A stretch of 64,000 nucleotides of DNA from Candidatus Woesearchaeota archaeon (lineage in GTDB: Archaea; Nanobdellota; Nanobdellia; Woesearchaeales; GW2011-AR15): assembly GCA_038874655.1 (NCBI GenBank), contig JAVZBY010000003.1, forward strand, positions 9,808 to 73,807, written 5' to 3'. This document shows, piece after piece, positions 32,322 through 34,345 of this stretch. The notes under the pieces were generated by a model, which ran no database searches, had not been told where the DNA came from, and saw nothing but the letters and a program-made list of their open reading frames with translations. Made by a program: the position numbers and the translations under genes. Positions within the stretch are counted from its first letter, which is position 1. The number at the start of each line of letters is the position of its first letter.

Positions 32322-33872
32322 TTAATTAAAATTTATACCATGAAACTCTTTTTCTTCAATTTTCTTTTGAAAATTTTTCTCGTATTTTCTTACAAAATCC
32401 TCAAACAACGGAATCTTAACTGGAATTGCAAATTTTGAAAAATTACTAGTTATGATTGCTTCTCCTTTATCTAATGAAGCTATTGTTCTAGAATCATTGC
32501 TTAAATCTTGTGCTGCTGATTCTATTATTGCTTGTCTTTCTGGTTGCATTTCAATTCCTAATATAATTTTTGTGTTCATATTTGCTAAAATTTCTCTTGG
32601 AATTAGAGAGGGTAATTGTGTTATTGCTGTTAGTCCTATTTTAAATTTTCTACCTTCTCTGGCAATTGTAGAAAATATATTAGGCCCAGTTTCTAAAACC
32701 TCTTTGCCTAAAACTCTTGGCGCTTCTTCAAGAATAATATTAATAACAGGTTTATTCTTCAATTCTCCACTAGATTTATACATTTTATATCTGTTAAAAA
32801 TTTCTGTTGTAATTAAACTACCAACTAAGATTTCTATATTTCCCGAAAAATTAGAAGTATCTATAATAACAATTTTTCCTTTTTCTAATTCATTGCAAAT
32901 ATCATTGATAGTTGTTTGACCTAAATTTAAATCAAATATTCCTTTAGGATATATTTTAAAAGGCTCTACATCAATATCTAATAATTGAGATAATTTTCTT
33001 TTTAAAACAGCTAAAGTAGATTCATTAACAACTGTATCTGTTTCTTTTTCTAACAACAAAGATTCAATCCAATTTTCATTATACTTTCTATAATAGACAT
33101 TAATGGCTTCTTTTTGTGCTGTTGTTAATTCCAGAGAACCATCAAAATGATAGGGCATTAATTGCTTTAAATTAATTTTTAATGTTCTTTGTCCAGGGGG
33201 TACATTATTAGGTGTATAATATACTAATTTTTTATTTGGATGATCTTTCAAGCCTATTTTATTTCTACCAAAATATTCATCATGGGGGTCCAAAACTAAA
33301 ACACCTGCATAATCTTTATCCATTAAATCCCATAACATAACATAAGTTAAATTACTTTTTCCTCTACCTGTTGTTGCTGGTATCAAGATATGATGACTCA
33401 AAACATCATCCCCTTTCAAATAAATTGGGACATCTAAAACTTTTGAACCACTTCTAAGATAACCAAAAAAAAGAGAATTTTCAGGTTTTGTTAGAAACTT
33501 TAAATCTTCACTATTAATCTCTCTTAATTCTGAAAAAAAATCTGGTAAATTTTTAGCTAAACTTATTTTATTATCCTCAATAACTAACATATTTTTTAAT
33601 TTTGCTAGATTATAACTTCTAAGTTTTTCATCCATAAAATATAGATCAGAATTTTCTTCTAATTTTAAACCACTGATTAACTCTAAATTTTCTGAAGAAA
33701 TTTGACTACCATAAATTAGATCATATACTTGAAAAATTGTTTTATGCTTATTTTTATTTTCTGCTATTAGTAATTCTCCTATTTCAATTCTTTCATCAGA
33801 TTTTTGTCTTGCTATAATTTCTCCGAACTTTCCAGAAATAATAATTCCTTTGCAATTTTTAGAATTTTTCAT
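32322..33872 (-). CDS. herA: HerA-family ATPase/helicase
   Basis: N-terminal HAS-barrel-like region, [38 protein letters not shown]. Confidence 0.9.
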
Positions 33873-33983
33873 AAAAATAAACAAAAAAAAGCAACTTTAA
33901 AAATTTTTATAAAAACAAGTAAAAACAAAAAAATTAATAAAAGAAAAAAAGAAAGAGTAAATAAAAATTTTTAAACAAATTCT

Positions 33984-34217
33984 TTATTTTCTGCCTCTAG
34001 CCATCTTTGCTCTAGAGACATCTCCTTTTGAATCAACAAAGTATAGATAGCCTTTTTCTTTTTTAACTCCTACTTTTGCTACTTTTTCAACTTTTTGTTT
34101 TCCTTTTTTTCTTCCTCCTCTAGCCATTTTTGCTCTAGAGATATCTCCTTGCTTATCTACAAAATATAGATAGCCATCTTCTTTTTTAACTCCTACTTTT
34201 GCTACTTTTTCAGCCAT
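33984..34217 (-). CDS. Small basic protein made of two near-identical repeats; putative nucleic-acid-binding protein
   Basis: EKVAKVGVKKE.GYLYFVD..GD.SRAKMARG x2; strong GGAGG SD. Confidence 0.8.
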   Translation of the reverse strand: MAEKVAKVGVKKEDGYLYFVDKQGDISRAKMARGGRKKGKQKVEKVAKVGVKKEKGYLYFVDSKGDVSRAKMARGRK

Positions 34218-34273
34218 TTTTTAACCTCCTTTAACATTTCATTGGTGAGAATTAAAAGAATGTCTCCCCACCG
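34218..34273 (-). promoter_or_regulatory. Structured 5' UTR: hairpin whose loop is complementary to the SD (putative H-type pseudoknot)
   Basis: GGUGGGGA/UUCUCACC stem; loop UUCUUUUAA pairs with UUAAAGGAG; TATA TTTATATA at 34295-34302. Confidence 0.55.
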
Positions 34274-34345
34274 AGTATAATATAGAATAACAACTATATA
34301 AATCTTACGATTTTGTAGACGAATAATATAAAAAAATTATAAAGA

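Follow-up and report, generated by a model that had tools for sequence, protein, structure and literature searches.

A short hairpin (P1) lies in the leader of the gene for a 77-aa basic protein in a Woesearchaeota archaeon; it is a genuine, conserved leader element, specific to this gene, across Woesearchaeota-type genomes. The element is of a known kind, the 5' leader hairpin, and occurs here in a poorly studied lineage. The layout that is kept consists of a G-rich 5' arm, a C/U-rich 3' arm, a loop that varies freely, an A-rich linker and an open Shine-Dalgarno (SD) sequence. The leader may best be explained as a 5'-terminal stem-loop that protects the 5' end of the mRNA and insulates an open SD, a reading that we hold to be about evenly poised between right and wrong. 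A second helix (S2), formed by the P1 loop and the SD region, had led an earlier note to propose an SD-sequestering pseudoknot or switch; S2, and hence the pseudoknot, is most likely a fortuitous peculiarity of this one sequence.

Locus and leader

The window is the whole stretch of DNA analysed (64,000 nucleotides). It belongs to an assembly of 1.26 Mb in 17 contigs, 97% complete, with 24.5% GC. The features of the locus are collected in Table 1. The minus-strand sequence quoted in the earlier note, GGUGGGGA-GACAUUCUUUUAA-UUCUCACC-AAUGAAAUG-UUAAAGGAG-UUAAAAA-AUG, is present, UUAAAAA being the stretch between SD and AUG. Its distance of 22 nt from TTTATATA was correct; its start at 34273 was one base early, GGUGGGGA beginning at 34272. 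The term 'GC-rich island' was overstated: in 60-nt windows the GC content at the leader is 0.30 versus a genome mean of 0.245, and the feature that stands out is the local G-run.

Table 1. Features of the basic-protein locus and its neighbourhood (window coordinates)
Feature	Position	Strand	Basis or remark
Upstream ORF, 195 aa	35086-35673	-	No family match above cut-off
Upstream ORF, 228 aa	34346-35032	-	No family match above cut-off
TATA box TTTATATA	34295..34302	-	Read in sequence; 22 nt then precede P1
Predicted transcription start	34270..34274	-	23rd nt past TATA box is G34272
P1 5' arm GGUGGGGA	34265..34272	-	G-run, SD-like
P1 loop GACAUUCUUUUAA, 13 nt	34252..34264	-	Sequence reading
Proposed S2 5' strand	34252-34260	-	Last 9 nt of P1 loop
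P1 3' arm UUCUCACC	34244..34251	-	C/U-rich
AAUGAAAUG	34235-34243	-	Between P1 3' arm and S2 3' strand
A/U-rich spacer, hairpin to SD	34230..34243	-	Sequence reading
Mini-ORF AUG AAA UGU UAA	34231-34242	-	Three codons, inside spacer
Proposed S2 3' strand UUAAAGGAG	34226..34234	-	Overlaps SD
Shine-Dalgarno GGAGG	34225..34229	-	
AUG start codon of 77-aa ORF	34215-34217	-	
Gene for 77-aa basic protein	33984..34217	-	ORF
T-rich tract past stop codon	33900..33983	-	Sequence reading
Downstream neighbour	32322-33884	-	HerA-like DUF87 ATPase, Pfam E 1.6e-27

A purine-rich, BRE-like AAGA precedes the TATA box, and in most archaeal orthologous loci TTTAWATA and the G-run are as far apart as here. The predicted start, G34272, follows from the distance that archaea usually keep between TATA box and start. 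The word TAGACG of the orthologues has a conserved CG whose spacing to the TATA box equals that of the predicted start in the window. Downstream of the TATA box but upstream of the G-run, family members have another TATA-like stretch, TATTTATAGA; if it were the true box, the 5' arm of P1 would lie outside the transcript.

Two further words were noticed around the promoter. Several family orthologues (L004, L012, L013, L014, L018, L023, L026 and others) share, 3' of the TATA box and ahead of the predicted start, the block (T)CTCCTCTATT-N-ATAGACG, which combines a palindrome-like TCTAT-N2-ATAGA with a CU-rich stretch complementary to the G-run. The block is degenerate in the window (34273-34290). 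Conceivable roles are those of an operator or a second TATA-like box; in read-through transcripts, the block might also serve as an alternative pairing partner. The word CGTCT(A/T)(C)AAAA (34311-34319 in the window, minus strand) recurs at two places in many orthologous loci, some 10-20 nt before the TATA box and directly after the leader hairpin.

The stretch AGGAGGU is complementary to the 16S rRNA 3' end (...GGATCACCTCCT), as read in two genomes of the same family; in the window's own assembly, searched as a whole, no 16S rRNA was matched. The T-rich tract past the stop codon is presumably an archaeal oligo-T terminator, in which case the basic-protein gene would be monocistronic.

The 77-aa protein

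According to the alignment of homologues, the protein consists of two tandem repeats of about 36 aa plus basic linkers, with the repeat consensus KVAKVGVKK-x-GYLYFVDK-x-GD-V/I-SRAKMARG; one homologue (P0064) has three repeats. In the AlphaFold model (pLDDT 85.9) it forms two three-stranded beta units. Homologues are numerous (6069 at E <= 0.001), and the protein is present in 56 of 61 related genomes. Close orthologues come from records titled Woesearchaeota or Nanoarchaeota. Other homologues come from records labelled Elusimicrobia, Nitrospirae, Omnitrophica and others, and identity between Woesearchaeota-type archaea and the records bearing these three labels is about 70-80%.

Searches of Pfam and NCBIfam with the protein gave sub-threshold rows only; PF27482.1 is precomputed on two of the homologues. 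Foldseek found no match of the model in the PDB at E <= 0.001, and a protein atlas search gave unnamed clusters only. The literature search returned general reviews only and nothing on the protein or its leader.

Divergent copies of the gene (L192-L198 and L200) were also seen. They are about 58-63% identical and their products begin with MAEV or MATV. They are second copies in genomes G002, G003, G009 and G013 and the sole copy in G008; copies of the same kind occur in G031 and G041. Most have a short leader or no recognisable TATA box and lack the 5' hairpin, which was found in two of eight (L196 and L197).

Conservation of the 5' hairpin

Upstream regions were collected at 190 loci, 30 of them from related genomes, 80 from metagenome contigs and 80 from genome contigs, the last two sets being drawn from 464 and 510 confirmed relatives, and gave 174 unique leaders. 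For the folding test, 33 of the 174 had no TATA match and 37 had too short a leader; the other 104 were tested. The segment from predicted start to SD had a mean z-score of -2.24 relative to dinucleotide shuffles and was below -1.64 in 69 of the 104 leaders. The control set was made up of 65 other genes of the genome in which a TATA-like box precedes the SD by 46-110 nt; folded in the same way, they gave a mean z-score of -0.14, with 8 of 65 below -1.64. Since the control leaders stay near zero, the structure is specific to the leader of the basic-protein gene and is not a general property of AT-rich leaders.

By eye, the family-level loci share one order: TTTAWATA, about 23 nt ending in TAGACG, the G-run, the hairpin, an A-rich spacer and GGAGG. 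The G-run is the 5' arm of the hairpin; the loop and the 3' arm vary from locus to locus. In 23 family leaders, the mean pairing energy of the 5' arm with the downstream region of the same leader was -10.13 kcal/mol, compared with -8.41 kcal/mol for non-cognate combinations, and the cognate value was matched by 0 of 10,000 permutations, a figure that overstates significance because the leaders are related sequences. The P1 of the window ranked 15th of 23 and is among the weaker family hairpins. The aligned G-run columns 15-18 were paired in 21 to 23 of the 23 leaders, each in its own minimum free energy (MFE) fold; a single column showed up to six types of pair.

Column-wise analysis gave no covariation signal: the MAFFT alignments leave the 3' arms out of register and the RNAalifold consensus contained 0 predicted pairs. 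One alignment, that of the second clade, mixed two subgroups. The evidence for covariation thus consists of each sequence's own fold, which leans towards structure, and of the comparison of cognate with non-cognate arms.

Of the two strands, the sense strand gave the more stable fold in 85 of 104 leaders (mean difference -2.96 kcal/mol; Wilcoxon p 4e-13, overstated for the same reason of relatedness). G-U pairs made up 187 of the 1180 pairs predicted in these leaders (16%). Both observations argue against a DNA palindrome. The 5' stem-loop is conserved beyond what base composition gives, and its structure is specific to the RNA strand.

Among the 100 leaders with any predicted pair, pairing begins at a median of +1 nt relative to the predicted start; the distance is 5 nt or less in 85 of them. 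Past the last paired base, the spacer of the orthologues contains 66% A, compared with 38% for the whole segments. Loop length ranges from 3 to 58 nt and the loop sequences are unrelated. The combined promoter and G-run pattern gave one match per genome, at this gene only, in 5 of 20 family genomes. In the genome of the window there are 17 matches to TATA box plus G-run, and the G-run has a complementary arm only at the basic-protein gene.

As these 17 sites show, TTTAWAWA is followed in many genes of this genome, after about 20 nt, by an SD of the GGGGUG or GGGGGU type and by an AUG; such leaders are short enough to put the SD at the predicted 5' end. The G-run of the leader studied here occupies the same position as these 5'-end SDs.

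Another Woesearchaeota clade (L054, L066, L069, L143, L154, L159, L163 and L166) has a different hairpin, UUAAGACG-loop-CGUCUUAA, about 20-60 nt upstream of the AUG; the same GACGUGGGGUG words are present, with the G-run in the loop. Loci related to this clade have the variants AAGACA/UGUCUU and AAGGCA/UGCCUU; by eye, these seem compensatory.

Folding of the window leader

The whole 81-nt leader of the window folds at an MFE of -13.2 with a z-score of -0.87, and 40 of 200 shuffles fold equally well; on its own, the fold is barely unusual. The two helices of the earlier note do exist in the sequence. P1 has 8 bp, two of them G-U, and alone is worth -9.9 kcal/mol; the P1 segment alone gives a z-score of -1.69. 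S2 pairs 9 of 9 bases across the SD, again with two G-U pairs, and a contiguous 10-bp helix is possible. It is worth -2.8 kcal/mol as a hairpin and -5.1 kcal/mol as a duplex. The alternative pairing GACAUU/AAUGUU is also there and has 6 bp. Together, P1 and S2 would give pseudoknot loops of 4 nt (L1), 0 nt (L2) and 9 nt (L3), which is sterically possible for the H-type geometry claimed.

Within the window, S2 is mildly unusual. A helix of at least 10 bp joining the SD window to the 60 nt before it occurs in 21 of 312 other SD-bearing genes of the genome, and a duplex energy of -9.3 kcal/mol or lower in 6.4% of the same 312, which places S2 in the top 6-7% of this null. Relative to dinucleotide shuffles its z-score is -1.37; with only the 13-nt loop shuffled, P is 0.01. 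In nested folding, the S2-type fold (-13.0) is preferred to the fold with P1 enforced (-10.6) by about 2.4 kcal/mol. The balance depends on the assumed 5' end, a shift of 1 nt flipping the dominant fold: the probability of P1 is 0.86 if the transcript begins exactly at G34272 and 0.014 to 0.16 at neighbouring starts. SD accessibility in the window is 0.16 versus 0.46 for shuffles, which makes the window an outlier in its family.

The second helix in relatives

In the 174 leaders there was no excess complementarity between SD and upstream region (mean z-score -0.08; below -1.64 in 14 of 174), and in 68 leaders there was no excess pairing between the loop and the downstream region (mean z-score -0.04; below -1.64 in 3 of 68). 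In the nearest relatives, L002, L031 and L033, the loop/SD helix has 0, 0 and 5 bp. When each of the 23 family leaders was compared with its own shuffles, the 9-bp helix of the window was the sole clear excess (P 0.01); of the other 22, L153 (P 0.04) and L072 (P 0.08) were marginal. The SD is more open than chance: the mean probability of its being unpaired was 0.634 in native leaders and 0.514 after upstream shuffling, the native value being higher in 75 of 104 (p 1.4e-7), and it was at least 0.5 in 16 of the 20 family leaders evaluated (of 23).

A conserved SD-sequestering pseudoknot is ruled out by these figures, S2 being at shuffle level in the 174 and 68 leaders and missing in the nearest relatives. 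An RNA thermometer, which the earlier note had also considered, would require a conserved SD-pairing helix; this helix is absent and the SD is more open than in shuffles, so the thermometer reading fails. As to a riboswitch or known RNA family, Rfam 15 gave only a chance CRISPR-DR17 row (E 8.4) for the window region at E <= 10, no match for the whole window at gathering score and none for 20 orthologous loci at E <= 1. The earlier note had likewise seen no match to the ligand-binding consensus of the preQ1-I and SAM-II riboswitches. Its suggestion of a new riboswitch finds no footing, since loops of 3 to 58 nt without a common sequence leave no room for a conserved aptamer. Of the structural conservation on which its proposal depended, the position and foldability of P1 are kept and S2 is not. 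The observation in the earlier note was thus partly confirmed and its interpretation partly supported.

Two other readings of the leader were rejected. No U-run of 5 or more was found 3' of the hairpin in the window or the orthologous loci, and a terminator or attenuator was discarded on this ground. An upstream ORF driven by the SD-like G-run was discarded because, by eye, an AUG at SD-like spacing past the G-run occurs in only one orthologue (L004). The mini-ORF in the spacer of the window, whose stop codon overlaps the 3' strand of S2, was not seen by eye in orthologues.

Discussion

The leader is best read as a promoter-proximal 5' UTR of about 55 nt whose first 29 nt would form P1. The hairpin would begin at, or a few nt from, the predicted 5' end of the transcript and would be followed by an unpaired A/U-rich spacer and the strong GGAGG ribosome-binding site. 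Its main effect would be to shield the mRNA from decay that depends on the 5' end. It would also prevent interference with the true SD, whether by the SD-like G-run or by other parts of the leader. The outcome would be a stable, well-translated mRNA for a protein that is probably abundant.

This function has precedents. In bacteria, as described in PMC3997798, mRNA gains stability from a hairpin that lies upstream, at the 5' end or close to it. For archaea, PMC7531240 describes protection of Sulfolobus mRNA by aIF2-gamma bound to the 5'-triphosphate end, and PMC5499594 describes a methanogen in which 5' structure and SD exposure jointly set translation and stability. The genome of the window encodes a single beta-CASP ribonuclease (629 aa; L191 1231-3120, minus strand), with the architecture KH-KH-MBL-betaCASP-RMMBL of the FttA/aCPSF1 type. 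Given the order of 5' hairpin, linker and open SD, these bacterial and archaeal precedents and the presence of this ribonuclease, protection of the 5' end was taken as the likeliest function.

Two findings count in another direction. P1 is favoured in the window only if transcription starts exactly at G34272, the S2-type fold winning otherwise, which counts against a stabiliser. The clade whose G-run sits in the loop and not in the stem still has the G-run motif GACG(U)GGGG(U)G; such persistence hints at sequence-specific recognition, something a plain stabiliser would not need. The hairpin is possibly a protein site.

The main rival to 5'-end protection is an autoregulatory operator, in which the encoded basic protein, or another RNA-binding protein, would bind the G-rich 5' hairpin. 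Translation or stability would drop as a result, for instance if the C/U-rich 3' arm were thereby released and paired with the SD. We regard this as unlikely, yet the best of the alternatives. The small size, strong basicity and high conservation of the product would suit a protein that binds nucleic acids, and the hairpin is specific to its gene. The persistence of the G-run motif across clades that differ in stem register also speaks for an operator. Since the 5' arm resembles the GGGGUG-type SDs of other genes, its C/U-rich partner is anti-SD-like. The divergent second copies found in some family genomes mostly lack the hairpin. Against it, the protein was assigned to no Pfam or NCBIfam family, its model had no structural match at the threshold used, the loop has no conserved sequence, complementarity between SD and upstream region does not exceed that of shuffles in the 174 leaders, and the SD is more open than chance.

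A pseudoknot or two-state P1/S2 switch limited to the genome of the window, with temperature, a ligand or a protein as the trigger that hides the SD, seems to us very unlikely. Both helices exist with feasible loops, S2 is in the upper tail of the genome-wide null and stands out from loop shuffles, the two states are close enough in energy for a 1-nt change of the 5' end to reverse them, and the SD of the window is poorly accessible. On the other side, the nearest relatives have little or no loop/SD helix, only two of the other 22 family leaders are marginally above their own shuffles, the family as a whole is at shuffle level and most of its SDs are predominantly unpaired. S2 itself is weak and rich in A-U and G-U pairs, in a genome of low GC, and has no Rfam counterpart; many windows were screened, so that an occasional event in the 6% tail is expected.

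Similarly small is the probability we give to an element acting as DNA, in which the inverted repeat and G-run would affect transcription as a start-site operator or as initially transcribed sequence. The element overlaps the predicted start, the sequence of the G-run is itself conserved, and family members have the palindrome-like and CU-rich block between TATA box and start. The preference for the sense strand tells against this, as do the G-U pairs, which are A-C mismatches in the other strand; the spacing of the arms, 3 to 58 nt, is unlike that of operator half-sites, and the arm sequences drift while their pairing is kept.

A three-part translational switch can also be imagined, and we think it quite improbable. 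It would consist of the 5' G-run as SD mimic, the anti-SD-like C/U partner and the true SD. By default, the mimic would hold the anti-SD, with P1 formed and the SD open. In the off state, put forward with the same strong reserve, the basic protein or a 30S subunit would capture the G-run and the C/U arm would move onto the SD. For the genome of the window one would have to suppose, just as doubtfully, that the loop segment forming S2 replaces the C/U arm. If true, the switch would be a case of protein-autoregulated control in DPANN, acting on a small protein that occurs in archaea and bacteria.

Comparison with known systems

For the 5'-terminal stem-loop preferred here, the closest systems are the bacterial 5' stabiliser stem-loops named in PMC3997798 (ompA and papA of E. 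coli and the aprE leader of B. subtilis). They have in common with it a hairpin at or close to the 5' end, which is a predicted end in the present case, then a single-stranded stretch and a strong ribosome-binding site, and likewise keep the structure while sequence and loop drift. The present case differs in its archaeal (DPANN) host with other decay machinery, in which only the FttA/aCPSF1-type beta-CASP enzyme was found, and the conserved G-run suggests an additional sequence requirement.

The structured long 5' UTRs of methanogen ribosomal-protein and housekeeping operons (PMC5499594) are similar as leadered archaeal mRNAs of housekeeping-type genes with 5' structure. As described there, their length is 54-154 nt or more, the SD is often buried, and endonucleolytic processing activates them; the leader studied here, in contrast, has about 55 nt and an SD that is open family-wide.

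The preQ1-I and SAM-II pseudoknot riboswitches resemble the window sequence, and only this sequence, in the potential of a hairpin loop to pair with the SD region within feasible loop lengths. They differ in that the window and the 20 loci searched have no Rfam match, no loop or junction nucleotides are conserved, and the second helix is absent in relatives.

Protein-autoregulated leaders include the ribosomal-protein operators and the archaeal L7Ae K-turn leader. The gene studied here is comparable in that a small basic protein is encoded behind a gene-specific conserved hairpin; unlike the L7Ae leader, it has no K-turn-like motif by eye.

Significance

Compared with its relatives, the pseudoknot or riboswitch reading fails, and there is no new ligand-sensing RNA to claim here. 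To our knowledge, almost nothing is known of post-transcriptional control in DPANN archaea, whose cultivation is not yet easy. The conserved 5' hairpin offers a concrete element for 5'-end protection or autoregulation in this group, and its conservation marks a widespread small-protein gene as one whose expression level matters.
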